64,000 bases of DNA from an uncultured Acidobacteriota bacterium (lineage in GTDB: Bacteria; Acidobacteriota; Thermoanaerobaculia; Thermoanaerobaculales; Sulfomarinibacteraceae): NCBI GenBank assembly GCA_963814875.1, contig CAWFFJ010000015.1, forward strand, positions 138,908 to 202,907, read 5' to 3'. Below the pieces are notes generated by a model. It had not been told where the DNA came from. It made no database searches and saw only the letters and a program-made list of their open reading frames with translations. A program made the translations under genes and the position numbers. Positions 9,923 through 30,878 of the stretch are shown piece after piece (position 1 is the stretch's first letter; each line of letters starts with the position of its first letter).

Positions 9923-10132
9923 CACCACCAAGACACCAAGACACCAAGCAGGCGCTGAAGGTGATCGATGGCTTCTGGGTCGGCGTAGTCCGACGTTGAC
10001 GGGGCTGCGTGAAGCCACAGAGGGCTCTTGATGGAGACTCCGTCATGCGAGAAGCAGCTCCTGAGAGGGAGTATCGGTTGGCGAACTGCCAGCATCTTTC
10101 GGACTCCCTTGGTGTCTTGGTGTCTTGGTGGT
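9923..10132. repeat. octamer-arm inverted-repeat element, copy 1 (no intact cargo)
   Basis: Left arm 9923-9948 is CACCACCAAGACACCAAGACACCAAG. Right arm 10108-10132 is CTTGGTGTCTTGGTGTCTTGGTGGT, its reverse complement. The 159-bp non-coding interior begins GGCGCTGAAGGTGA..ATGGCTT, like the interior next to 12865. Confidence 0.8.
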
Positions 10133-10163
10133 TTCTTTTCGCACGCTCCCGGTGGGGGGCGCG

Positions 10164-12785
<2,622 letters not shown>

Positions 12786-12807
<22 letters not shown>

Positions 12808-12865
12808 GACACAGGGGAGCACAGAGCCCCCGCCCACCCGAAGTGAAACCACCAAGACACCAAGG
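12786..12865. repeat. left composite terminus of the cassette
   Basis: GAACAAACCACAGAGGCACTGAGACACAGGGGAGCACAGAG (8-nt periodic CACNGAGN), then CCCCCGCCCACCCGAAGTGAA, then ACCACCAAGACACCAAGG. It contains the stop codon (12805-12807) of the XdhD-like gene. Confidence 0.85.
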
Positions 12866-12988
12866 CGCTGCAAGTGAATGGCTTGAGGCGGTGGGGTGAC
12901 AAGAACGAATCGGGCATGTAGGGAGCGGCTGGCACTAGCCCGGACCCCCAACCCCAGCTGCCTCTGGTAGCATCGCCGCGGAGAGCCA

Positions 12989-13642
12989 GTGTCGCTCGCG
13001 AAAACCCTCACCCCAGAGAAGGCGCTGATCTTCAGGATCACACATCAGAGGAACGTCCCGTGGATTCTTGAGCATGGGCTCCACTGCCGGAGCTCGAACA
13101 TCGTGGACTCGGACTTCGTGAGCATTGGCAATCAAGACCTGATCGACAAGCGCGCGTCTCGTCTCGTTCCGGCGCACCCGGGGGGCGAGCTCGGCGACTA
13201 TATCCCCTTCTATTTCACGCCATATTCGCCGATGCTCCTCAACATCAGGACGGGCCGCGGCAACGTGAAAAGGCGGCGCAACGAGGAGATCGCCATCTTG
13301 GTGTCATCGCTCGCCCGCCTGTCGGAGCACGGGGTCAGGTACTTGATCACAGATAGCCACGCCTTCCTGGCGACAGCGCAGTTTTCTACAAACCTCGATG
13401 ACCTCAGAGAGTGGCTCCCATGGGAGCACCTCCAGGAACGCAACTTCAAGAGGGACCCAGACGACCCGACAGCGTTCGAGCGCTACCAAGCGGAGGCCTT
13501 GGCGCACAAGGAAGTGCCTACTGAGGCGCTGTTGGGCGTCGTTTGTTACACTGAGGGCGTAAGATCCAACCTAGAAGCCGAGCGGGTGAAACGCCGGGTT
13601 GACCTCAAGGTCCTGACGAAGCCAGATTGGTATTTCCCATGA
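12989..13642 (+). CDS. darT: DarT ssDNA ADP-ribosyltransferase toxin (DUF4433)
   Basis: 217 aa. N-terminal IFRITHQRNVPWILEHGL and C-terminal ERYQAEALAHKEVP match the DUF4433 pattern (xHITHxxNLxxIL... / QAEfLV with a catalytic Glu). GTG start after GGAGAG. The stop overlaps the darG ATG (ATGA at 13639-13642). Confidence 0.85.
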   Translation: MSLAKTLTPEKALIFRITHQRNVPWILEHGLHCRSSNIVDSDFVSIGNQDLIDKRASRLVPAHPGGELGDYIPFYFTPYSPMLLNIRTGRGNVKRRRNEEIAILVSSLARLSEHGVRYLITDSHAFLATAQFSTNLDDLREWLPWEHLQERNFKRDPDDPTAFERYQAEALAHKEVPTEALLGVVCYTEGVRSNLEAERVKRRVDLKVLTKPDWYFP

Positions 13643-14712
13643 TGCGATTCACCTCGGGCAACATGCTCCAAGCCGACGTCGAGGCGCTGGTCAACACAGT
13701 TAACACCGTCGGCGTGATGGGTAAGGGCATCGCCTTGATGTTCAAGGAGGCGTACCCGGAGAACTTCAAGTCCTACGTCGCGGCGTACAAGCGTGGGGAG
13801 ATTCGAACCGGCCACATGTTCGTCACCGAATTGCCCGCACGCCTTGAGGGCGGTCCGCGGTGGATCATCAACTTCCCAACCAAGGAGCATTGGCGGGGCC
13901 GGTCGAGAATGGAGTGGATCACCAAAGGACTCGAGGACCTCCGCCGTGTCATTCGCGAGAGGGGGATCTCCTCGATCGCAGTACCGCCCCTCGGGTGCGG
14001 CGCGGGAGGCCTCAACTGGCCGGATGTTCGGGCGGCGATCGTGGAGGCACTCGGCGATCTCAAGGCAGTCAACGTGGTCGTCTACGAGCCGACCTCGCAG
14101 TACCAGAACGTCACCAAACGGCGTGGCCTGCAGAAGCTCACGCCGGCCCGGGCGATGGTGGCCGAGTTGGTGCGCAGCTACTCCGTGCTCGGCATCGAGT
14201 GTTCGGTCCTCGAAATCCAGAAGATGGCCTGGTTCCTTGAGCGCAGCATCGAGAAACTGGACCTCCCCAACCCTCTCAACCTCTGCTTCGAGGCCAATAG
14301 GTACGGGCCGTACGCCGACCGGCTCCGCCACCTACTCGACGACCTTGACGGTAGCTACCTGCACTGTGAGCGCCGCCTGGCGGACGCGCGCCCCGCCGAC
14401 GCCATTTGGTTCGACGATGCCAAGCGGGACCTCGTCGCCGCCTACCTCGGCTCCGGCGACGCCAAGCAATACCAGGACGCGCTCGACAGGACGACCGCAC
14501 TGATCGACGGCTTCCAGTCGCCTCTCGGTCTCGAGCTGCTGGCGACGGTGGATTGGCTCGTCGCCCGCGAGGGGGTTGAGCCCGAGCTTCAGGCTGTTCG
14601 CGACGCGCTTGCGCACTGGCCAGGCGGCAGATCCGCCGGCGAGCGCAAGCTGCGCCTCTTCGACGACCGCATGCTCGGTTTGGCCCTCGAGCGCCTTTCC
14701 TCAACAACCTAG
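13639..14712 (+). CDS. darG: DarG macrodomain antitoxin (ADP-ribosyl-DNA glycohydrolase) with C-terminal DarT-binding region
   Basis: GNMLQADVEALVNTVNTVGVMGKGIALMFKEAYPENF...SIAVPPLGCGAGGL is a Macro-domain signature. A roughly 200-aa helical C-terminal domain follows. It is translationally coupled to darT. Confidence 0.85.
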   Translation: MMRFTSGNMLQADVEALVNTVNTVGVMGKGIALMFKEAYPENFKSYVAAYKRGEIRTGHMFVTELPARLEGGPRWIINFPTKEHWRGRSRMEWITKGLEDLRRVIRERGISSIAVPPLGCGAGGLNWPDVRAAIVEALGDLKAVNVVVYEPTSQYQNVTKRRGLQKLTPARAMVAELVRSYSVLGIECSVLEIQKMAWFLERSIEKLDLPNPLNLCFEANRYGPYADRLRHLLDDLDGSYLHCERRLADARPADAIWFDDAKRDLVAAYLGSGDAKQYQDALDRTTALIDGFQSPLGLELLATVDWLVAREGVEPELQAVRDALAHWPGGRSAGERKLRLFDDRMLGLALERLSSTT

Positions 14713-14786
14713 GTACCCACAGTTAGGGCAGCACACCTTCGTTCTCCGCCCTCGAGCGCACACAACGCCGGCTGTCGCCTTAGCCC

Positions 14787-14815
14787 TTGCCAACATCGTG
14801 TGGACATCGTATATT
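14787..14815 (+). promoter_or_regulatory. candidate sigma70-type promoter for the TIR-NLR operon
   Basis: TTGCCA (14787-14792), then a 17-nt spacer, then TATATT (14810-14815), about 30 nt upstream of ATG 14846. The spacer carries a direct repeat ACATCGT-GTGG-ACATCGT. It sits in an AT-richer 133-bp gap after darG. Confidence 0.35.
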
Positions 14816-14845
14816 TCGTTAGAAGGCTCGAGTCGGAGGGTCGTC

Positions 14846-15337
14846 ATGGAAACCAAGATCCGCTTCTTCGCTTCCTACGCTGCCAAGGATGGGGCCTTGG
14901 CCGAACGGCTTCTGGAACCGCTTCGCTCGCACCTCGCGGCGTCGAAGCGCTTCGCAGTCACGGTGTGGGACTTCCATCGGCTGTTGGTGGGCGAGCGGTG
15001 GCACGTGAGGATCCTGGCTGAGCTTGACCGGAGCGATTTCGGTCTGCTGCTGCTCAGCCCGGCGTTCTTGACGTCGAGGTACATCGACGAGCACGAGCTG
15101 CCCCGTCTCGTCGGAAAAGGTGAGAAGCCTGTGATCCCGGTCTGTCTGAGGCTCATCGACCTCGAACGCCAGAGCATGAAAGGGCTCGAGCAGTATCAAC
15201 TCTTCCGGCTCGGCGGCCGCACCTTCTCCCAGCTGACGACGGCTGCTCAGCGGGAGCGCTTCGTCTTCGAGCTTTACCGTCAGATCGAGGACCGCGTCGC
15301 TTCCCTGTGGGCACATGGCAGCGGTGAGGCGCCATGA
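14846..15337 (+). CDS. stand-alone TIR-domain protein (163 aa)
   Basis: ATG 14846 follows GGAGGG. KIRFFASYAAKDGALAERL...DFGLLLLSPAFLTSRYIDEHELPRL fits the bacterial TIR pattern (F-x-SY..D ... S..Y..S.(W/Y)x..E). The stop overlaps the next ATG (ATGA at 15334-15337). Confidence 0.8.
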   Translation: METKIRFFASYAAKDGALAERLLEPLRSHLAASKRFAVTVWDFHRLLVGERWHVRILAELDRSDFGLLLLSPAFLTSRYIDEHELPRLVGKGEKPVIPVCLRLIDLERQSMKGLEQYQLFRLGGRTFSQLTTAAQRERFVFELYRQIEDRVASLWAHGSGEAP

Positions 15338-18300
15338 TCGCTGCACGTCGTCGCCTGGGTGGCGGAGCATTGCGAGCAGTGCTGCCGCGGATTGAGGAGC
15401 AGTTAGGCTCGGCCGACTGCGCACGCCTACACCAGTGCTTGGATGCCCAGGACGGCGATCGCCTGCAGATGGCGCGGCTCCTTGAAAGGCTGTTCCCTGG
15501 GAAGTCCACACAGGAAGGGCAGGCCTCGCTGCGGAGCTTCCGGCAAGCATTCAACCGAGCTGCTGAAAATGCGGGGCTCGCCGTTTCCTTCACCGCCGAC
15601 ACGAAGAAACGCACACCGGCGGCCGAGCGTTGGTGCTGGTTCGAGGGTGAGGGGCTCGATGAGGCGACCATGGCGGAACGGTCCGCCGCCGAGGCGGAGC
15701 CCACGGACCCCGAGCGAATGGTCCGGCCACAAGCGAAGAAGCTCGACGCTCGTCAGGTTGTGCGCTGGGTCGTACTGGCCGCACCGCCTGACGGGGACGC
15801 AGCACGCCCGTTCATTGTCGAGCTGGAAAAGTCCCTTCGCGGCTCAAGCCGGTATGACTTCGTTGGCTGGGCGCCGTGGAACGTTCTGGCCGGCGAGAGG
15901 CCCGAGGAGGAGAGGGCGCGCCAGCTCGAGAAGGCCGACCTCGTCCTGGCCATGGTCAGCGCAGGCTTCGCGGCCGACCCTGCCGTCGTTGAGCTGTCGG
16001 ACGACGCCGTCGAGGCTGGGAAGATCGTCGTCCCGGCCCTCCTCAGCCAAGTCGACCCGAAGCGTCAGCGACTGGGCAGAATCGGCGATATCGAGCTATT
16101 CCCAAAGAACGGCAAGTCGTGTGCCGGCTGCTCCTTGCACCAGCGGGGGCAGCTGGCACACGAGCTGTTCACGGTAATCGTCGAGCGAATGGAGAAGGCA
16201 TGCGATGAGGGCGAGAAGCATCGAATCAAGGCGGAGACGGCCCTCGAGCGAGCTTTCCGGGACGATCTCGACGACTCGGGCTTTCCGGCTGAGCCGGTCC
16301 CGAGCCGCGGTCGCCTGACCAAGATCCGGCTGCTGCGAGCCGAACGTGATGAGCGCACAACGGGCCGCATCGACGGCTTCGACGCGGTCGACTACCTGGC
16401 ACGGTGGGCCGCCGACCCCTCCTCGCCCCCGTTCTGCGCTCTGCTCGGCGAGGTCGGCATCGGCAAGACCACCGCCTGCCAGCTCCTCACGCTTCGCTTG
16501 CTTGCAGCACGGAAGGAGGATCCCGGACTCCCGCTCCCGATCTACCTCGATCTGCGGCGCTACTCCTGGGACGGGAAGGTCGACTTCACCCTCGAGCAGA
16601 TCCTCGATGCCGTCCTGAGCCGGAGCTGGCGCGCAGGCTTCGGCGCGCCTCTCGGCGCAGAGGGCGTGATACGCCTCGTCACCGAGGCGGGGGCACTGGC
16701 GATCTTCGACGGGCTCGACGAGGTCCTGGTGCATATGCAGCCGAAGCTCGGCCAGGACTTCATCCGCGAGCTGTGGCGCCTCAGGCCGCCCGTGCGCCGC
16801 CGGGCCAAGCTCACCGACAGGGCGAGAGGAGGCAAGCTGCTGCTTTCATGCCGGTCGCACTACTTCCGCACCGTGCTCGAGCAGAACGCACTGCTCCTCG
16901 GCGAGGAGCGCGAGGGTCTCAGGGGCGAGGACTACGACGCCCTGGAGCTGCTGCCCTTCGACGCCCAACAGATCGAGAGCTACCTGCGGCGAAACCTCCC
17001 CGAAGTCGACGTCGAGCGGGCGCTCGAGCTGATCAGGTCGGTCCACAACCTGCCAGAGCTCGCCGAGCGACCTTTCACCCTGTCGCTGATCGGTGAGCAC
17101 CTGCCCGAGCTGGAGGCGAAGCGGGTCGCCGGCGGCACAGCCCGAGGCATCGACCTCTACCAGGCGGTGGTGGATCGCTGGCTCCAGCGCGACCACGGCA
17201 AGCACCAGCTCAACCCGAGCCACAAGCGGCTGCTCATGGAGAACCTCTCCGCCGAGCTGTGGCGCGCCGGCCGACGCGAGTGGGGCTGTGAGCAGCTCGA
17301 GGCATGGCTTGACGGGTTTCTGTTCGCCAACCCGATCATCGAGGGCGCCTATCGGACCATTGAGCGCGAGGTGCTCAAAGAGGACCTCCGCACCGCCACC
17401 TTTGTCGTGCGCACCGACGACGACACCTTCCGCTTTGCGCACTCCTCATTACAGGAGTACTTCCTCGCATCGAGGCTCCACCGGGCGCTCCGCGAGAATC
17501 ACCCCGAGGCGTGGGCGATCCCCATGCCCTCGGAAGAGACCCTCGGCTTCCTGCTTGAGCTGCTCGAGTCGCGCCCGGAGGACCGCGAGGCGTGCGAAGG
17601 AACGCTCTGCGACATCCTGGCCGTATACCGCCCGCAGGCAAGCGAGCTCGCCTTCAAAGTGTGGCTTCTCGCCCACAGCAACGGTAGGCCCCTTCCCCGA
17701 CCAAAGTGTTTCGACCTCCACGGGGCGGATTTGGCCGGTTGGCACATCTCCGCGCCGCCAGGCCGGTTGGTCGATCTGACGGGTGCCGATCTCCGGAACG
17801 CAAACTTGCGACGCGCCGTACTCGAGCGCGTCACCCTCAACGACGTTGACCTGCGAGGGAGCGATGCCGTCGCGGCCGAGCTTCACGAGGTCGAGCTGCA
17901 TGGAGCGCTGGTATCTGACGCCGACCTCACCGCCACTCTCTGGCGCCGGTCGCGGGTGGTGGATATCGACTTTTCCAAGACGCGTCTCGAGGGCTCGCGC
18001 ATGATCCGGTCGACTCTGAAGAGGGTCACCTTGCCAGGCGCGCGGGGGGAGGTGCTCGCGAGCTGCATGGTCGACGGGGCGGAGCACTCGTCCCTGGACT
18101 CTCGAGGCGGCGCGACGCTGGGGCTCTTCACCGGACATTCAAGTAACGTCGCATCCTGCGCGGTCGCGCCCGACGGCCGCCGCGGGCTCTCCGCGGGTGA
18201 CGACGGCACCGTCAGGCTCTGGGACCTCGACTCCGGCGAGTGCCTGCGCGTGCTCGAGGGACATCGAGCCGGGGTCTCGGCGTGCGCGGTCGCCCCCGAC

Positions 18301-19446
18301 GGCCGCCGCGCGCTCTCCGCGGGTGACGACGGCACCGTCAGGCTCTGGGACCTCGACTCCGACGAGTGCCTGCGCGTGCTCGAGGGGCATCGAGGCCGGG
18401 TTTTGGGGTGCGCGGTCGCCCCCGACGGCCGCCGCGCGCTCTCCGCGGGTGACGACGGCACCGTCAGGCTCTGGGACCTCGACTCCGACGAGTGCCTGCG
18501 CGTGCTCGAGGGACATCGAGGCGGGGTCTCGGCGTGCGCGGTCACCCCCGACGGCCGCCGCGCGCTCTCCGCGGGTCGTGACGACGGCACCGTCAGGCTC
18601 TGGGACCTCGACTCCGGCGAGTGCCTGCGCGTGCTCGAGGGACATCGAGCCGGGGTCTGGGCGTGCGCGGTCGCCCCCGACGGCCACCGCGCGCTCTCCG
18701 CGGGTGGTGGCGACTTCACCGTCAGGCTCTGGGACCTCGACTCCGGCGAGTGCCTGCGCGTGCTCGAGGGGCACGGGCACACCTCTTGGGGGTGCGCGGT
18801 CGCCCCCGACGGCCGCCGCGCGCTCTCCGCGGTTGACGACGGCACCGTCAGGCTCTGGGACCTCGACTCCGGCGAGTGCCTGCGCGTGCTCGGGGGCCAT
18901 CGACACTGGGTTAGGGGGTGCGCGGTCGCGCCCGACGGCCGCCGCGCGCTCTCCGCGGGTCGTGACGACGGCACCGTCAGGCTCTGGGACCTCGACTCCG
19001 GCGAGTGCCTGCGCGTGCTCGAGGGCCATCGACGCTGGGCCTGGGCGTGCGCGGTCGCGCCCGACGGCCGCCGTGCGCTCTCCGCGGGTGACGACGGCAC
19101 CGTCAGGCTCTGGGACCTCGACTCCGGCGAGTGCCTACACGTGCTCGAGGGCCATCGAGGCGAGGTCTGGGCGTGCGCGGTCGCGCCCGACGGCCGCCGC
19201 GCGCTCTCCGCGGGTGACGACGGCACCGTCAGGCTCTGGGACCTCGACTCCGGCCTCGAGACGCTGACCATGGCAACCCTGCCTGGCGGCGAGGCCGCGG
19301 CCCTCGACCCGATTTCAGGCACATGCCGGCGTGCCTCGCCCGGCGCCTGGCGGTGGCTCGGATGGCTCGCCCGCGACCCCGAGACCTGCAAAATCCGCCG
19401 CTACCCCGCCGAGAGCTTTGGCCCGCTGCCCGGGTCTGAAGACTGA
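15334..19446 (+). CDS. NLR-like STAND NTPase: unassigned N-module / TIR-like domain / NACHT / pentapeptide repeats / 9 WD40 repeats (1370 aa)
   Basis: A TIR-like alpha/beta block spans aa 142-242 (VVRWVVLAAPPDG...ADLVLAMVSAGFAADPAVVEL; 15757-16059). Walker A GEVGIGKTT is at 16447-16473 and Walker B LAIFDGLDEV at 16696-16725. A pentapeptide-like block covers aa 793-900 (ADLRNANLRRAVLERVTLNDVDLRGSD...; 17710-18033). Nine GH...TVRLWD WD40 units span 18133-19255. Confidence 0.85.
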   Translation: MIAARRRLGGGALRAVLPRIEEQLGSADCARLHQCLDAQDGDRLQMARLLERLFPGKSTQEGQASLRSFRQAFNRAAENAGLAVSFTADTKKRTPAAERWCWFEGEGLDEATMAERSAAEAEPTDPERMVRPQAKKLDARQVVRWVVLAAPPDGDAARPFIVELEKSLRGSSRYDFVGWAPWNVLAGERPEEERARQLEKADLVLAMVSAGFAADPAVVELSDDAVEAGKIVVPALLSQVDPKRQRLGRIGDIELFPKNGKSCAGCSLHQRGQLAHELFTVIVERMEKACDEGEKHRIKAETALERAFRDDLDDSGFPAEPVPSRGRLTKIRLLRAERDERTTGRIDGFDAVDYLARWAADPSSPPFCALLGEVGIGKTTACQLLTLRLLAARKEDPGLPLPIYLDLRRYSWDGKVDFTLEQILDAVLSRSWRAGFGAPLGAEGVIRLVTEAGALAIFDGLDEVLVHMQPKLGQDFIRELWRLRPPVRRRAKLTDRARGGKLLLSCRSHYFRTVLEQNALLLGEEREGLRGEDYDALELLPFDAQQIESYLRRNLPEVDVERALELIRSVHNLPELAERPFTLSLIGEHLPELEAKRVAGGTARGIDLYQAVVDRWLQRDHGKHQLNPSHKRLLMENLSAELWRAGRREWGCEQLEAWLDGFLFANPIIEGAYRTIEREVLKEDLRTATFVVRTDDDTFRFAHSSLQEYFLASRLHRALRENHPEAWAIPMPSEETLGFLLELLESRPEDREACEGTLCDILAVYRPQASELAFKVWLLAHSNGRPLPRPKCFDLHGADLAGWHISAPPGRLVDLTGADLRNANLRRAVLERVTLNDVDLRGSDAVAAELHEVELHGALVSDADLTATLWRRSRVVDIDFSKTRLEGSRMIRSTLKRVTLPGARGEVLASCMVDGAEHSSLDSRGGATLGLFTGHSSNVASCAVAPDGRRGLSAGDDGTVRLWDLDSGECLRVLEGHRAGVSACAVAPDGRRALSAGDDGTVRLWDLDSDECLRVLEGHRGRVLGCAVAPDGRRALSAGDDGTVRLWDLDSDECLRVLEGHRGGVSACAVTPDGRRALSAGRDDGTVRLWDLDSGECLRVLEGHRAGVWACAVAPDGHRALSAGGGDFTVRLWDLDSGECLRVLEGHGHTSWGCAVAPDGRRALSAVDDGTVRLWDLDSGECLRVLGGHRHWVRGCAVAPDGRRALSAGRDDGTVRLWDLDSGECLRVLEGHRRWAWACAVAPDGRRALSAGDDGTVRLWDLDSGECLHVLEGHRGEVWACAVAPDGRRALSAGDDGTVRLWDLDSGLETLTMATLPGGEAAALDPISGTCRRASPGAWRWLGWLARDPETCKIRRYPAESFGPLPGSED
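18133..19255 (+). repeat. nine tandem 126/129-bp coding repeats (WD40 units) inside the NLR gene
   Basis: Units start at 18133, 18259, 18385, 18511, 18640, 18769, 18895, 19024 and 19150. Between units 2 and 3 the last ~99 nt (GTGCGCGGTCGCCCCCGACGGCCGCCGCGCGCTCTCCGCGGGTGACGACGGCACCGTCAGGCTCTGGGACCTCGACTCC...) are identical, and the other units differ only slightly there. Differences cluster in the first ~27 nt of each unit. Confidence 0.9.
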
Positions 19447-19538
19447 GGCAAACTGGTCGTTGCCGCGGCTGTCCTTCAAGGCCCGGATCGGCTTCCGACC
19501 TTTGGCTTTCTATGGTCTCGCCCTGGGCGGGTGGGCGG

Positions 19539-19632
19539 CTTGGTGTCTTGGTGTCTTGGTGGTTCACTCTTGGGCGGGTGGGGGCTTTCAAACCCTCTGT
19601 GCGTCTCTGTGCCTCAGTGTCTCTGTGGTTTG
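19539..19632. repeat. right composite terminus of the cassette
   Basis: CTTGGTGTCTTGGTGTCTTGGTGGTTCACTCTTGGGCGGGTGGGGGCTTTCAAACCCTCTGTGCGTCTCTGTGCCTCAGTGTCTCTGTGGTTTG is the reverse complement of the left terminus modules. It ends 13 nt before the hydantoinase stop codon (19645-19647). Confidence 0.85.
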
Positions 19633-19644
19633 TCCTTCGTCCCG

Positions 19645-21000
19645 CTACGCCTTCGCCAGCAGCCGGCCGCGGGGGTGGTCGCGGTCGGTCAGAGCGCCGT
19701 CGCGGACCACCTCGACGCCGCCGAGCAGGACGTGGCGGATCGCGAGCCGGGTGGTCGCCGTGGGGAACGGAGGGTAGGCGTCCGCGAGGGTCGGCCGCAC
19801 CGGACGCGCCGGTCCCGCCGGGTCGACCACCACCAGGTCGGCGTCGGCCCCGGGGCGGATGACCCCCTTACGTTCGGCGAGACCCAGTACCCGCGCCGGG
19901 GCGGCCGAGAGCATCGAAGCGAAACGCGGCAGCGGCCACTTGTGGCGCTCGACGAGCAGCTCCCAGGCCAGGGGCAGCAGGGCGCCGACACCGGGCAGCC
20001 CACTCGGGACCGCGCGCAGGTCGCCGGCGAAAACATCCTTGTCGGCGCGGCGGAACGGGCAGTGGTCGGAGGCGAGCAGGTCGACCGCCCCCTCGGCAAC
20101 CACCGCCTCGAGGGCGGCGCGGACCGCCGACGGACGCAGGGGTGGGGTGCACAGCCGGCGGTGACCGCCATAGCCGGCGAGCGCGCGCTCGTCGAGCAGC
20201 AGGTAGTGCGGCGCGGTCTCCGAGGTCACCGCGGCGGAAGCCCGGGAGGCGGCGATCCGGCCTGCTCCGTAGGCGGTCGAGACGTGGACCACATGGGTCG
20301 CACAGCCGGTGCGCTCGGCGAGGTCGAGCAGCTTGGAGATCGCCGCGATCTCCGCCCGCTCCGGGCGCAGGCGGGCGTGGTTCTGCGGGTTCGAGAGGTC
20401 GAGGTCTGAGGCATCGACCATGTCGAGGATCTCCTGGTCCTCACAGTGGACGAGCACCGTGGCGCCGAGATCGGCGAAGCGCAGCATCGCCCCCTCGAGC
20501 CGGTCCCAGGGCGTGAACAGGCCGGCCTCGCGGTAGGTCGTGTAGAGCTTGAAGGTGGCGAAGCCGTCCGCAACCAGGGCCTCGATCTCATCCCAGTCCC
20601 AACTCTCCCCGGTCGGCGTCAGGTGCAGGGCGAGGTCGGCGTGGAGGCGCCCCCGCGCCTTGGCGACCATCCTCCCGACCGCCGCGGCCAGGCTCTCCCC
20701 CGGGCGCTGGGTGACGAAGGAGGCGATCGTGGTGACACCTTCGCGCACCGCGGCCTCGGTGCCGGAGGCGAAGTCGTCGGCGATCGGAACGCCTGCGACC
20801 TCGTCGTCGAGGTGGACGTGGAGGTCGATCACGCCGGGCAGCACCACGCACCCGGAGGCGTCGATCACGGCCTCGTCCGGGCGGCGCTCGCACCGGCCGA
20901 CCTCCATGATGTGCGTGCCCTCGACCCGCACGTCGGTCGAGGCTTCGCCGTCAGGAGTGACCACCAGCCCGCCCGCGACCAGCACCCCGCCTTCGCTCAT
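19645..21000 (-). CDS. cyclic amidohydrolase (D-hydantoinase / dihydropyrimidinase, HyuA-like)
   Basis: Start moved to ATG 21000 (MSEGGVLVAGGLVVTPDG...). The GVIDLHVHLDD metal-binding motif and 451-aa length are typical of hydantoinases. Confidence 0.85.
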   Translation of the reverse strand: MSEGGVLVAGGLVVTPDGEASTDVRVEGTHIMEVGRCERRPDEAVIDASGCVVLPGVIDLHVHLDDEVAGVPIADDFASGTEAAVREGVTTIASFVTQRPGESLAAAVGRMVAKARGRLHADLALHLTPTGESWDWDEIEALVADGFATFKLYTTYREAGLFTPWDRLEGAMLRFADLGATVLVHCEDQEILDMVDASDLDLSNPQNHARLRPERAEIAAISKLLDLAERTGCATHVVHVSTAYGAGRIAASRASAAVTSETAPHYLLLDERALAGYGGHRRLCTPPLRPSAVRAALEAVVAEGAVDLLASDHCPFRRADKDVFAGDLRAVPSGLPGVGALLPLAWELLVERHKWPLPRFASMLSAAPARVLGLAERKGVIRPGADADLVVVDPAGPARPVRPTLADAYPPFPTATTRLAIRHVLLGGVEVVRDGALTDRDHPRGRLLAKA

Positions 21001-26747: not shown

Positions 26748-27953
26748 GCCTCGAGATCGCCCACGACCTGCTCGAGTCCTGCGCCCGCCACGAGACCGAG
26801 ATCGTGGCCTTCCTGCGCGACCTGATCGCGATCCCCGCCGAGAGCGGCGCCGAGGGTGATCGCTGTGCCCGGGTGCTCGCCGAGTACCAGAGACTCGGCT
26901 TCGACGAGGCGCGCTTCGACGGGCTCGGCAACGTGGTCGGCCGGATCGGCTCCGGTCCGGTCACGGTGCTGCTGGACGGTCACGTCGACTGCGTCGGGCG
27001 TCGGCGACCCGACCTCGTGGTCGCATGACCCGTTCCGCGGCAAGCTCGAGGCTGGCGAGGTCTGGGGCCGAGGCGCGGTCGACGAGCTGCCCGCGGTGGC
27101 GACGATGCCGTGGGCGGCGCGGCTCGCGGCGGACCGCGGCCTGCTCGACGGCGTCACCCTCTACGTGGTCGCCTCGGTGATGGAGGAGGCCTTCGACGGC
27201 TTCCCGCTGCAGTGGCTGATCGAGCGCGAGGGCGTCCACCCTGACGCGGTCGTGCTCGGCGAGCCGACCGACCTCGCCGTCTACCGCGGCCACCGCGGCC
27301 GGATGGGGATCGAGGTCGTGGCCCGGGGCGTCTCCGCCCACGCTGCGCACTGCGACCTCGGCGTCAACGCGGTCACCAAGATCGCGCCGATCGTGCTCGA
27401 CGTCGATGCCCTCCATCGGCGGCTGCCCGGCCACGACGTGCTCGGCAAGGGCTCGGTGACGGTGAGCTTCATCGAGTGCACCACCGCCTCGCTCAATGCG
27501 GTGCCGGACCGCGCCCGGATCGTGCTCGACCGTCGACTCACGGCCGGCGAGACCCCCGAGTCCGCCCTCGCCGAGATCCGCGCTCTGTCCCACATCGGCG
27601 ACGCCGAGGTCCGCACTCTGACCTCCCGCGGGCGCTCGTGGCGCGGCGTCGACGTCGAGCTCGAGGAGGCCTACCCGACCTGGCTGCTCGATGCCGACCA
27701 TCCTCTGGTCGAGGGCGTCGCCGAGGCCGCGCAGGCAGTGCTCGGCGGGGCGCCACGGCTCGGGGTGTGGACCTTCTCGACCAACGGCGTCGCCACCATG
27801 GGCCGGCTCGGGATCCCGACCGTGGGCTTTGCGCCCGGGCGGGAGGAGCTCGCCCACACCACCGAGGAGCACGTCGCGGTCGCCGATCTGCTGAGAGCGA
27901 CCGCGGTCTACGCCCTGATCCCCGCCGCCCTCGCCAGGAGGTTGGGGGGATGA
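26744..27953 (+). CDS. ygeY: YgeY-like M20 family metallohydrolase, interrupted by an apparent +1 frameshift at the G3 run 26996-26998
   Basis: The GTG 26744 start overlaps the upstream stop. ...VLLDGHVDCVG (frame A) joins VGDPTSWSHDPFRGKLEAGEVWGRGAVD... (track ORF 26856..27953) if one G of GGG is removed. The stop (27951-27953) overlaps the ATG of the GxxExxY gene. Confidence 0.8.
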
Positions 27954-28372
27954 ACCACCAAGACACCAAGACACCAAGACGGAAGCCAGAGCCGGTCTCG
28001 TCTGCCATTGACGAGGTCGCTCGTCAGGTGGTCGATGCTGCATACACGGTTCATCACGAGCTCGGACCCGGTCTGCTCGAGTCGATCTACGAGGCGTGTC
28101 TTGCGCGAGAGCTCGAGCTGCGGGGCATTCCGGTCGAGCGGCAGGCGTCGATTCCGGTGGTGTACAAGGGTGTCCGGCTTCCGTCCTCGCTTCGGATCGA
28201 CCTGCTCGTCGGTGGCTGCGTCGTCGTCGAGGTGAAGGCCGTCGATGCCCTCGTCGGGGTTCACACGGCGCAGATTCTCACATACCTCAAGCTGTCAGGG
28301 CTTCGAGTCGGTTTTCTTGTCAACTTCAATGTCGGTGTCATCAAGGACGGAATCCGCAGGATCGCGCTGTGA
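27950..28372 (+). CDS. GxxExxY protein (PD-(D/E)XK nuclease superfamily)
   Basis: GPGLLESIYEACLARELELRG contains the G-x-x-E-x-x-Y motif. RIDLLVGGCVVVEVKAV gives the D...E-x-K nuclease motif. The first ~10 codons (MNHQDTKTPR) are encoded by the repeat arm. Confidence 0.85.
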   Translation: MNHQDTKTPRRKPEPVSSAIDEVARQVVDAAYTVHHELGPGLLESIYEACLARELELRGIPVERQASIPVVYKGVRLPSSLRIDLLVGGCVVVEVKAVDALVGVHTAQILTYLKLSGLRVGFLVNFNVGVIKDGIRRIAL

Positions 28373-28416
28373 CGAATCATCGGACCGACCTCTTGGTGTC
28401 TTGGTGTCTTGGTGGT
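27954..28416. mobile_element. octamer-arm inverted-repeat element, copy 4, carrying a GxxExxY nuclease gene
   Basis: The arms are 27954-27980 (ACCACCAAGACACCAAGACACCAAGAC) and 28391-28416 (TCTTGGTGTCTTGGTGTCTTGGTGGT). A single 140-aa gene fills the interior. It is inserted between the ygeY-like and ygeW-like genes. Confidence 0.6.
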
Positions 28417-30663: not shown

Positions 30664-30878
30664 ACCACCAAGACACAAAGACACCAAGACACCAAGAGGA
30701 ATCACAGAGCCGGCCTTCACGACCGATCTTCGAGGTGGAGCTCCAATGGGGCATTGCGAGCGGTCCTCCGCCGCGGCAGACCTCTGTTACCTGTGGAAAA
30801 GACCGGCTGCAATGTTCCGGGTCTAGCCCTGGCTGCCTCGGGTGGGCGGGGGGCTTGGTGTCTTGGTGTCTTGGTGGT
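30664..30878. repeat. octamer-arm inverted-repeat element, copy 5 (no intact cargo)
   Basis: The arms are 30664-30698 (ACCACCAAGACACAAAGACACCAAGACACCAAGAGG) and 30854-30878 (CTTGGTGTCTTGGTGTCTTGGTGGT). The 155-bp interior ends ...GGTCTAGCCCTGGCTGCCTCGGGTGGGCGGGGGG, similar to the sequence just inside the right cassette terminus at 19514-19538. Confidence 0.8.

Follow-up and report, generated by a model that had tools for sequence, protein, structure and literature searches.

The DNA analysed here is a 64,000-nucleotide stretch (hereafter the window) of contig CAWFFJ010000015.1, from an uncultured acidobacterium of the Sulfomarinibacteraceae (assembly GCA_963814875.1). It carries, on its forward strand, two overlapping genes for a small protein with a TIR (Toll/interleukin-1 receptor) domain, here called the free TIR, and for a large NOD-like receptor (NLR) with a central NACHT module. 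The NLR has a TIR fold of its own, which is predicted to have lost the catalytic glutamate that the free TIR retains, and the pair is considered here as a candidate two-gene immune receptor. From N- to C-terminus, the NLR consists of a NACHT N-terminal Helical domain 6 (NNH6), the TIR fold, NACHT, pentapeptide repeats, nine WD40 repeats and a conserved C-terminal tail. The features of the pair are as follows.

14787..14815, forward strand: putative promoter-like element TTGCCA-17-TATATT, within the 133 bp that separate darG from the TIR gene (consensus match only)
14835..14840, forward strand: Shine-Dalgarno-like GGAGGG, 5 nt ahead of the ATG of the TIR gene (read from the sequence)
14846..15337, forward strand: free TIR gene, 163 aa, predicted catalytic partner (open reading frame (ORF) and Pfam TIR_2 match)
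15334..15337, forward strand: ATGA stop/start overlap of the free TIR gene and the NLR gene (read from the sequence)
15334..19446, forward strand: NLR gene, 1370 aa (ORF and domain matches)
15367..15693, forward strand: NNH6 domain, NLR aa 12-120 (Pfam PF22737, E=4e-25)
15754..16233, forward strand: degenerate internal TIR, NLR aa 141-300, without Glu at the catalytic column (AlphaFold2 (AF2), Foldseek and alignment)
16351..17703, forward strand: NACHT NTPase module with helical/winged-helix extension, aa ~340-790 (Pfam NACHT and motifs)
17713..18048, forward strand: pentapeptide-repeat region, aa ~794-905 (Pfam Pentapeptide and NCBIfam)
18121..19248, forward strand: nine WD40 repeats, aa 930-1305, putative sensor (Pfam WD40, 9 stretches)
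19249..19443, forward strand: conserved C-terminal tail of the NLR, aa 1306-1370 (conservation across the family; no Pfam match)

The overlapping ORFs of 163 and 1370 aa and their ATGA at 15334-15337 are as stated in a preliminary description that was made from the letters alone. The promoter-like element reported there also stands as a consensus match, agreeing with a sigma-70-like promoter at 10 of 12 positions; it is the sole such match in the 7.2 kb from 12700 to 19900, where 0.3 are expected from shuffled sequences. The ATGA overlap implies translational coupling of the TIR and NLR genes, which we take to be co-transcribed, and there is high confidence that the two form a functional two-gene unit.

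The free TIR matches Pfam TIR_2 well above the cut-off (E=8e-11, 42.9 bits, cut-off 28), and its AF2 model, with a predicted local distance difference test (pLDDT) score of 84, is matched by Foldseek to the TIRs of TLR1/2, BtpA, BtTir and AbTir. In the family alignment W41, G49, E50, W52, GLLLLSP and F74 are invariant, and E84, which is the second Glu in DEHEL, reaches at least 90% conservation. In a profile alignment with PDB sequences, the E84 column, in helix alphaC, falls on the 'YEL' Glu of AbTir (7UWG, 8G83) and BtTir (7UXR), which, by residue count, we take to be AbTir E208, the published catalytic residue. A Glu is present at this column in every free TIR read. The retained catalytic Glu claimed in the preliminary description is therefore upheld by the alignment of E84 with the 'YEL' Glu, and the doubts entertained there, that the small gene might not be a TIR or might lack the Glu once aligned, were not borne out. 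The free TIR is predicted to be a catalytic, NADase-type TIR. Over its full length it is 35-45% identical to the internal TIRs of single-chain NNH6-TIR-NACHT relatives (E down to 1e-44), compared with 25% for the internal TIR of its own partner (E=9e-8). An unbootstrapped neighbor-joining (NJ) tree places the free TIRs in at least three groups, amid internal TIRs that are intact. These comparisons indicate that the free TIR is a close paralogue, descended from the internal TIR of the NLR family.

The internal TIR of the window NLR matches Pfam TIR_2 over aa 158-256 at a sub-threshold 20-24 bits, and scores 50 bits against a hidden Markov model (HMM) of the free TIRs, compared with 146-175 bits for intact internal TIRs. 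The AF2 model of NLR aa 1-340 has a pLDDT of 93-97 across aa 141-300, and the top Foldseek matches of this region are the TIRs of plant NLRs (RPPT, L6, RPS4/RRS1, SNC1) and TLR1; TIR structures of RPS4/RRS1 and MyD88/MAL are among the matches of the free and the internal TIR alike. The motifs F-x-S-Y-A, G-E-x-W, D-F-G-L-L-L-x-S-P-x-F-L and Y-I-x-x-x-E-L-P occur both in free TIRs and in the TIR domains of NLRs that stand alone; the alignment shows that most of them are gone from the NLR's own TIR where a free TIR gene precedes it. At the catalytic column, the window NLR has S or L, and the other paired NLRs have A, T, L, a gap, D, N, D, V and D. E220, in AVVEL, was tried as the catalytic Glu and rejected, being two residues early in the helix (+11 from S209 to E220, against +13 from S71 to E84 of the free TIR, both helices starting at the same place) and non-conserved in orthologues. 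Thus, the second TIR-like block with an analogous motif that the preliminary description had noted is a genuine TIR by AF2 and Foldseek, but its supposed catalytic Glu is out of register. The internal TIR is predicted to be catalytically dead. The core residues common to dead and active TIRs (W179, G187, S209 and P234) are kept, which, together with the confidently predicted fold, argues for a retained structural role.

A W-A-P-W motif at NLR aa 179-182 (15868-15879 of the window) is specific to the closest paired NLRs, and the free TIR has W-D-F-H at this site, which lies just ahead of the Gly conserved in the BB-loop region. This loop mediates head-to-tail TIR-TIR contacts in known assemblies, and W-A-P-W could be a docking determinant. 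A relationship of either TIR to TeTIR, the TEP1-type extended TIR (bioRxiv 10.64898/2026.09.21.753143), was considered and rejected, as the matches of both are to canonical TIR_2 and to TIR structures of the ordinary kind, at a normal length of ~150 aa.

Loss of the catalytic Glu from the NLR goes together with presence of a free TIR gene. Among NLRs with an upstream free TIR and an assessable column, the NLR's own TIR lacks the Glu in 12 of 12 lineages (window, L003, L004, L007, L009, L023, L030, L031, L033, L038, L039 and L040), whereas the Glu is kept in all six lineages without a TIR gene in the upstream flank read, which spanned 2-7 kb (L013, L020, L021, L036, L037 and L041). These six solo NLRs also keep the FxSY, GExW and GLLLxSP motifs. 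Three distant relatives, picked solely for loss of the Glu (P0070, with V, and P0061 and P0043, both with D), all have an overlapping upstream TIR_2 gene of ~160 aa, and no upstream free TIR gene is found with the Glu-keeping P0024 and P0035 (2/2). An exhaustive search with NLR aa 1-345 shows the family that shares the NNH6 and TIR N-terminus to be sizeable: it returned 284 representatives at E<1e-3, of which 95 remain at E<1e-10, and most of them are 1000-1690 aa long. Myxobacteria, e.g. Archangium and Cystobacter, also have relatives. Among 150 representatives listed, 73 keep Glu in the catalytic column, and the TIR score of most of these is high; a few (P0033, P0080, P0098, P0100 and P0117) score low and have lost other family motifs. 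A further ~38 of the 150 have a lower-scoring TIR without Glu, although 12 of these are unaligned at the column, several because the sequence ends early, and ~39 have no TIR by this profile, more than half of them being fragments of <250 aa.

The pair itself is conserved across lineages. Free TIRs form a family of ~155-170 aa proteins, found in 16 clusters by a word-index search, and in every readable context but one (L018) the next gene encodes an NLR of the same family. Whether the two genes co-occur in other genomes had been raised in the preliminary description; they are adjacent in ~15 lineages from several phyla, Acidobacteriota among them. The NLR start usually lies 4 nt before the TIR stop (ATGA or GTGA), with a 16-nt overlap in L004/L006. 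Further pairs came to light when the free-TIR alignment was run against GTDB species genomes and JGI metagenomes, their named hosts being metagenome-assembled genomes (MAGs) of Thermoanaerobaculaceae, Solibacteraceae, Mycobacteriales and Proteobacteria. The partner NLRs have NNH6 in all but two cases, followed by the TIR-like, NACHT, pentapeptide and WD40 regions. No relative of the free TIR or the NLR was found in a plasmid collection.

Two loci show TIRs of this kind in other surroundings. In an Idiomarina sp. MAG (L018, 4966-12301), a member of the free-TIR family, 37% identical and with the Glu kept, is not beside an NLR; its gene is flanked by one for an Eco57I/MmeI-like DNA methylase and one for a 1019-aa reverse-transcriptase-domain protein, after which comes a 573-aa protein. 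By gene content this looks like a different, four-gene defence cassette using the same TIR. In a Prosthecobacter sp. MAG (L017, 5228-10105), a 1626-aa protein has two tandem TIRs followed by an NB-ARC/AAA_16-type NTPase of the signal transduction ATPases with numerous domains (STAND) class. The TIR nearest to the free-TIR family has Arg at the catalytic Glu column, and the protein may be an arrangement of a dead and a live TIR in cis.

The activity of TIR NADases depends on ordered, head-to-tail assemblies of TIRs, and a non-catalytic TIR is able to nucleate its partners, examples being TLR/MAL/MyD88 and RRS1/RPS4. From these two points a mechanism of recruitment in trans is inferred for the pair. 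Binding of a ligand would lead the NACHT modules to oligomerise, and the oligomer would cluster the dead TIR domains; these would then dock or template the free TIR into head-to-tail assemblies with an open active site, and the free TIR would cleave NAD+, by way of depletion or of a signal, arresting growth of the infected cell. We consider it somewhat more probable than otherwise that the locus is an NLR-type conflict module of two genes, with catalysis moved off the receptor and the dead TIR docking or nucleating the free TIR for NAD+ cleavage. The preliminary description had proposed that the NLR nucleates both its own TIR and the separate one: partnership with a separate TIR fits the Glu pattern, but the NLR's own TIR is predicted dead, so the two would not both serve as enzymes. 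A broader proposal, that this NLR family has turned its own TIR into a dead docking domain and placed an intact copy in a coupled gene, perhaps repeatedly, with activation in trans through heterotypic dead/live assembly, is put forward more tentatively, its chances falling a little short of even.

Several observations weigh against recruitment of a live TIR by a dead one. The naive Fisher p=5e-5 for 12/12 against 6/6 overstates the support, as the lineages are related. Asp stands at the catalytic column of the paired L023, L031, L039 and L040, for which residual activity is possible. The NJ tree of the NACHT region, in which the paired NLRs fall in at least 3-5 places, and which hints at more than one origin of the dead/live TIR split, has no bootstrap values. 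The occurrence of the L018 TIR outside an NLR pair suggests that this TIR can work in other contexts. Finally, PADLOC fails to place the NLR among known defence proteins, the sole match (HEAT-ARM_XIII) lying within the WD40 region; its Avs/AVAST profiles likewise give no Avs match.

The N-terminus of the NLR bears on which part of the system is the enzyme. Its first ~135 aa had matched nothing recognisable in the preliminary description, but aa 12-120 are NNH6 in Pfam, at the E-value given above, and are modelled by AF2 as a mixed helix/strand fold (pLDDT 92-98). NNH6 is wholly absent from two of the paired NLRs (L023 and L033), leaving the free TIR as the sole candidate enzyme in those pairs, and the NNH6 of relatives is followed by a separate enzyme (PNPase or an intact TIR). 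By this distribution NNH6 is unlikely to be the effector. The same facts bear on a reading in which the free TIR is a regulator of the NLR's TIR (an inhibitor, cap, decoy or guarded bait) and killing is done by NNH6 or another part of the NLR. TIRs do bind one another without catalysis, as in animal adaptors and the bacterial Tcp proteins, NNH6 carries no assigned function, and translational coupling is typical of pairs resembling toxin-antitoxin (TA) systems. However, the Glu of the free TIR and its surrounding motifs are conserved in all pairs, which would be needless for a pure inhibitor, two paired NLRs do without NNH6, and NNH6 behaves as an accessory in the relatives. A regulatory free TIR is accordingly held to be improbable.

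The Walker A motif of the NLR, GEVGIGKTT at aa 372-380, fits GxxxxGK[ST], and the Walker B, FDGLDE within LAIFDGLDEV at ~aa 455-464, meets D[GAS]hDE, the signature defined as NACHT-specific by Kibby et al. (bioRxiv 10.1101/2022.07.19.500537). Pfam NACHT (PF05729) matches aa 368-555 with 31.6 bits (cut-off 26.7) and the family HMM gives the NACHT module 704 bits; judged by these motifs and scores, the module is an intact NTPase switch. The pentapeptide region, matched by Pfam Pentapeptide (E=4e-12) and by NCBIfam pentapeptide families, is found in all relatives examined. The NACHT motifs, pentapeptide repeats and nine WD40 blades had all been read correctly in the earlier account, as Pfam, NCBIfam and motif reading agree. 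The tail of ~60-65 aa after the last blade, with the motifs LPxGExAx[LF]D ... AWRWLGW ... PAExFGPLP, is common to paired and solo family members of many lineages, and aa 1306-1370 have no match in Pfam; closure of the propeller and an autoinhibitory element are possibilities for its role.

The WD40 array is a tandem repeat at the DNA level (18157-19254 by Tandem Repeats Finder; 126-nt period, 8.6 copies, 91% matches). Amino-acid variation between the repeats is limited to ~6 positions following each 'GH', the remainder being near-identical, which suggests concerted evolution combined with diversifying selection on one surface. The hypervariable array is likely to be the ligand sensor. Repeat number also differs, with nine repeats in the window NLR and ~14 implied by the 1600-aa relatives. 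In an ENA contig from another assembly of the same organism (L001), which is 99.5% identical to the window over 12863-19529 with 9 gaps over 6.7 kb, the NLR is broken within the WD40 array into ORFs of 996 and 294 aa. Faulty assembly or sequencing of the repeat is the probable cause of this break, real strain variation being the alternative.

Near-identical, hypervariable WD40 repeats of this kind resemble those of the fungal allorecognition NLRs HET-E/D. The same mechanism might serve a purpose other than defence against phage, namely the programmed death of cells or the discrimination of kin or self in bacteria that are multicellular or filamentous, roles that have been put forward for many NACHT/WD40 systems. 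Such systems have been tied to multicellular prokaryotes (Kaur et al. 2020/2021, PMC7159879, PMC8195603), and the myxobacterial relatives noted above (Archangium, Cystobacter) fit this. Against it stand the position of the pair next to DarTG within a low-GC block, the TA or restriction-type genes in the vicinity of several homologous pairs, and the protection against phage conferred by bacterial NACHT proteins that have been tested (Kibby et al.). A role of this sort is given a slim chance.

The genes immediately upstream of the pair form a complete DarT/DarG system (a single-stranded DNA ADP-ribosyltransferase and its antitoxin), themselves overlapping by 4 nt.

12989..13642, forward strand: DarT (PADLOC, 210 bits)
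13639..14712, forward strand: DarG, the macro-domain antitoxin (PADLOC, 397 bits)

The block of DarTG, TIR and NLR has a GC content of 60-69%, compared with 71-77% in the flanks, where the genes, going by their translations, resemble those of purine/pyrimidine catabolism. DarTG stands beside the pair only in this organism (window, L001/L002), and since it is absent beside the pair elsewhere, it is co-located with the pair in an island and is no part of the module. The pair probably has a role in conflict, either antiphage or in abortive infection, for which the DarT/DarG genes directly upstream, the low-GC block and the hypervariable WD40 patch provide support.

The macro domain next door also raises the possibility of a Thoeris-like system, in which the free TIR, activated by the NLR or independently of it, would make a diffusible NAD-derived signal (a cyclic ADP-ribose isomer or histidine-ADP-ribose) for an effector encoded elsewhere, and a stable contact with the dead TIR would be unnecessary. 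Many bacterial TIRs are signal generators, and the best PADLOC match of the free TIR is to a ThsB-type model (ThsB1, E=2.5e-10), though a weak one, covering 102 of 319 profile positions. Yet what the macro gene encodes is DarG at full length, next to its partner DarT, and no ThsA-like, SLOG, SIR2 or transmembrane (TM)-macro effector is conserved beside the pair in the other loci examined. The 4-nt coupling and the complementary loss of Glu, moreover, indicate a two-component unit. A Thoeris-like system is thus unlikely, and its specific form with the upstream macro protein as ThsA was rejected, given the identity of that protein as DarG with DarT and its lack of conservation beside the pair elsewhere.

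An imperfect inverted repeat of ~88 nt (12777-12864 and 19547-19644, 73-80% complementary) brackets the low-GC block. Its core, CTTGGTGTCTTGGTGGTT, also occurs at six intergenic sites of the window (9924-9949, 10108-10141, 27951-27981, 28392-28416, 30664-30696 and 30840-30878). The repeats were considered as the termini of a mobile element, and this was rejected on account of the dispersed copies. By its distribution, the ~88-nt repeat is a dispersed repeat of this genome, resembling repetitive extragenic palindromes or miniature inverted-repeat transposable elements, and is not specific to the island.

Accounts of bacterial NACHT NLRs portray them essentially as systems of one gene, the effector being fused in cis, and this subfamily departs from that plan in having a predicted dead TIR on the receptor and a predicted live one in trans. 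If the dead TIR does recruit the live one, the pair would be a simple, two-protein bacterial model of nucleated TIR-TIR signalling, and would show how the active site of a TIR NADase is assembled across unlike subunits. It would also be a bacterial relay of receptor and TIR, a living intermediate for the evolution of the scaffold-only TIRs of TLRs and MyD88 from NADase TIRs. For annotation, the degenerate TIR is of a kind missed by domain-based surveys, as in the unannotated 115-355 gap in published tables, and defence-finding tools would label the small TIR 'ThsB-like' and the NLR nothing.

The receptor itself belongs to a described kind. Kibby et al. defined the NNH domains, catalogued the clades of NACHT proteins and found that those tested defend against phage. 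In their Table S1, clades 10 and 11 combine NACHT, Pentapeptide and BetaPropeller with many alternative N-terminal modules, and the entries include 'NNH6+PNPase+NACHT+WD40' and 'TIR+NACHT+Pentapeptide_4+BetaPropeller'. A clade 11 bacterial NACHT (bNACHT) protein of Frankia sp. R43 (WP_063793287.1), entered as 'NNH6+NACHT+Pentapeptide+BetaPropeller', has the same domain string and spacing as the window NLR, with NNH6 at ~4-114, NACHT from ~356, pentapeptide at ~831 and then the beta-propeller. On architecture alone, the window NLR is assigned to the bNACHT clade 11 type. The architecture had been thought unusual and possibly undescribed in the preliminary description; it is in this table, and the pentapeptide insert is a hallmark of clades 10/11. 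The Frankia entry is, however, unannotated over aa 115-355 and names no partner gene, whereas the window NLR has its dead TIR there and an overlapping TIR gene upstream. According to the same study, bNACHT genes are rarely in operons, and such operons are poorly conserved.

The single-chain TIR-NACHT NLRs (e.g. Cystobacter fuscus L021, Archangium L013, P0024 and P0035) share NACHT, pentapeptide, WD40 and C-terminal tail with the window NLR, and among TIRs it is their internal one that is most closely related to the free TIR. They differ in retaining the catalytic Glu, together with the motifs, in that internal TIR, and in having no upstream gene for a free TIR. Thoeris is similar in that ThsB is also a small, stand-alone TIR with a catalytic Glu, and differs in that a ThsA-type effector (SIR2-SLOG or TM-macro) is missing beside the pair, where the conserved partner is the NLR. 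The fungal HET-E/D/R NACHT-WD40 NLRs have highly similar tandem WD40 repeats varying at few surface positions, but have a HET N-terminus, no pentapeptide segment and no separate TIR gene. In the animal TLR to MAL/MyD88 relay and the plant RRS1/RPS4 TIR heterodimer (PDB 4C6T), a non-catalytic receptor TIR pairs with a second TIR protein by way of TIR-TIR contacts, as proposed here. These systems are eukaryotic, however, and the animal adaptor TIRs are non-enzymatic, whereas the partner recruited here is a predicted enzyme and its interaction with the receptor is inferred.

The nearest concept is the effector-associated domain (EAD) principle (Kaur et al., PMC7159879, PMC8195603), under which an adjacent effector gene and a STAND NTPase share a homotypic N-terminal module and recruitment is predicted; here, homologous TIRs are found in the adjacent gene and at the N-terminus of the NTPase in ~15 lineages. 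EAD systems and amyloid-motif pairs use a dedicated adaptor domain or a short motif, whereas here the shared module is the effector fold, with one copy inactivated. No description of a free TIR paired with an NLR whose TIR lacks the Glu was found in the literature, within a coverage that is incomplete and takes in no figures (Fig. 2 of Kibby et al., for example, could depict one). Thus, the kind of receptor is already known; what appears to be new is the division between a dead TIR and a live one, and the complementary pattern that this shows across lineages.

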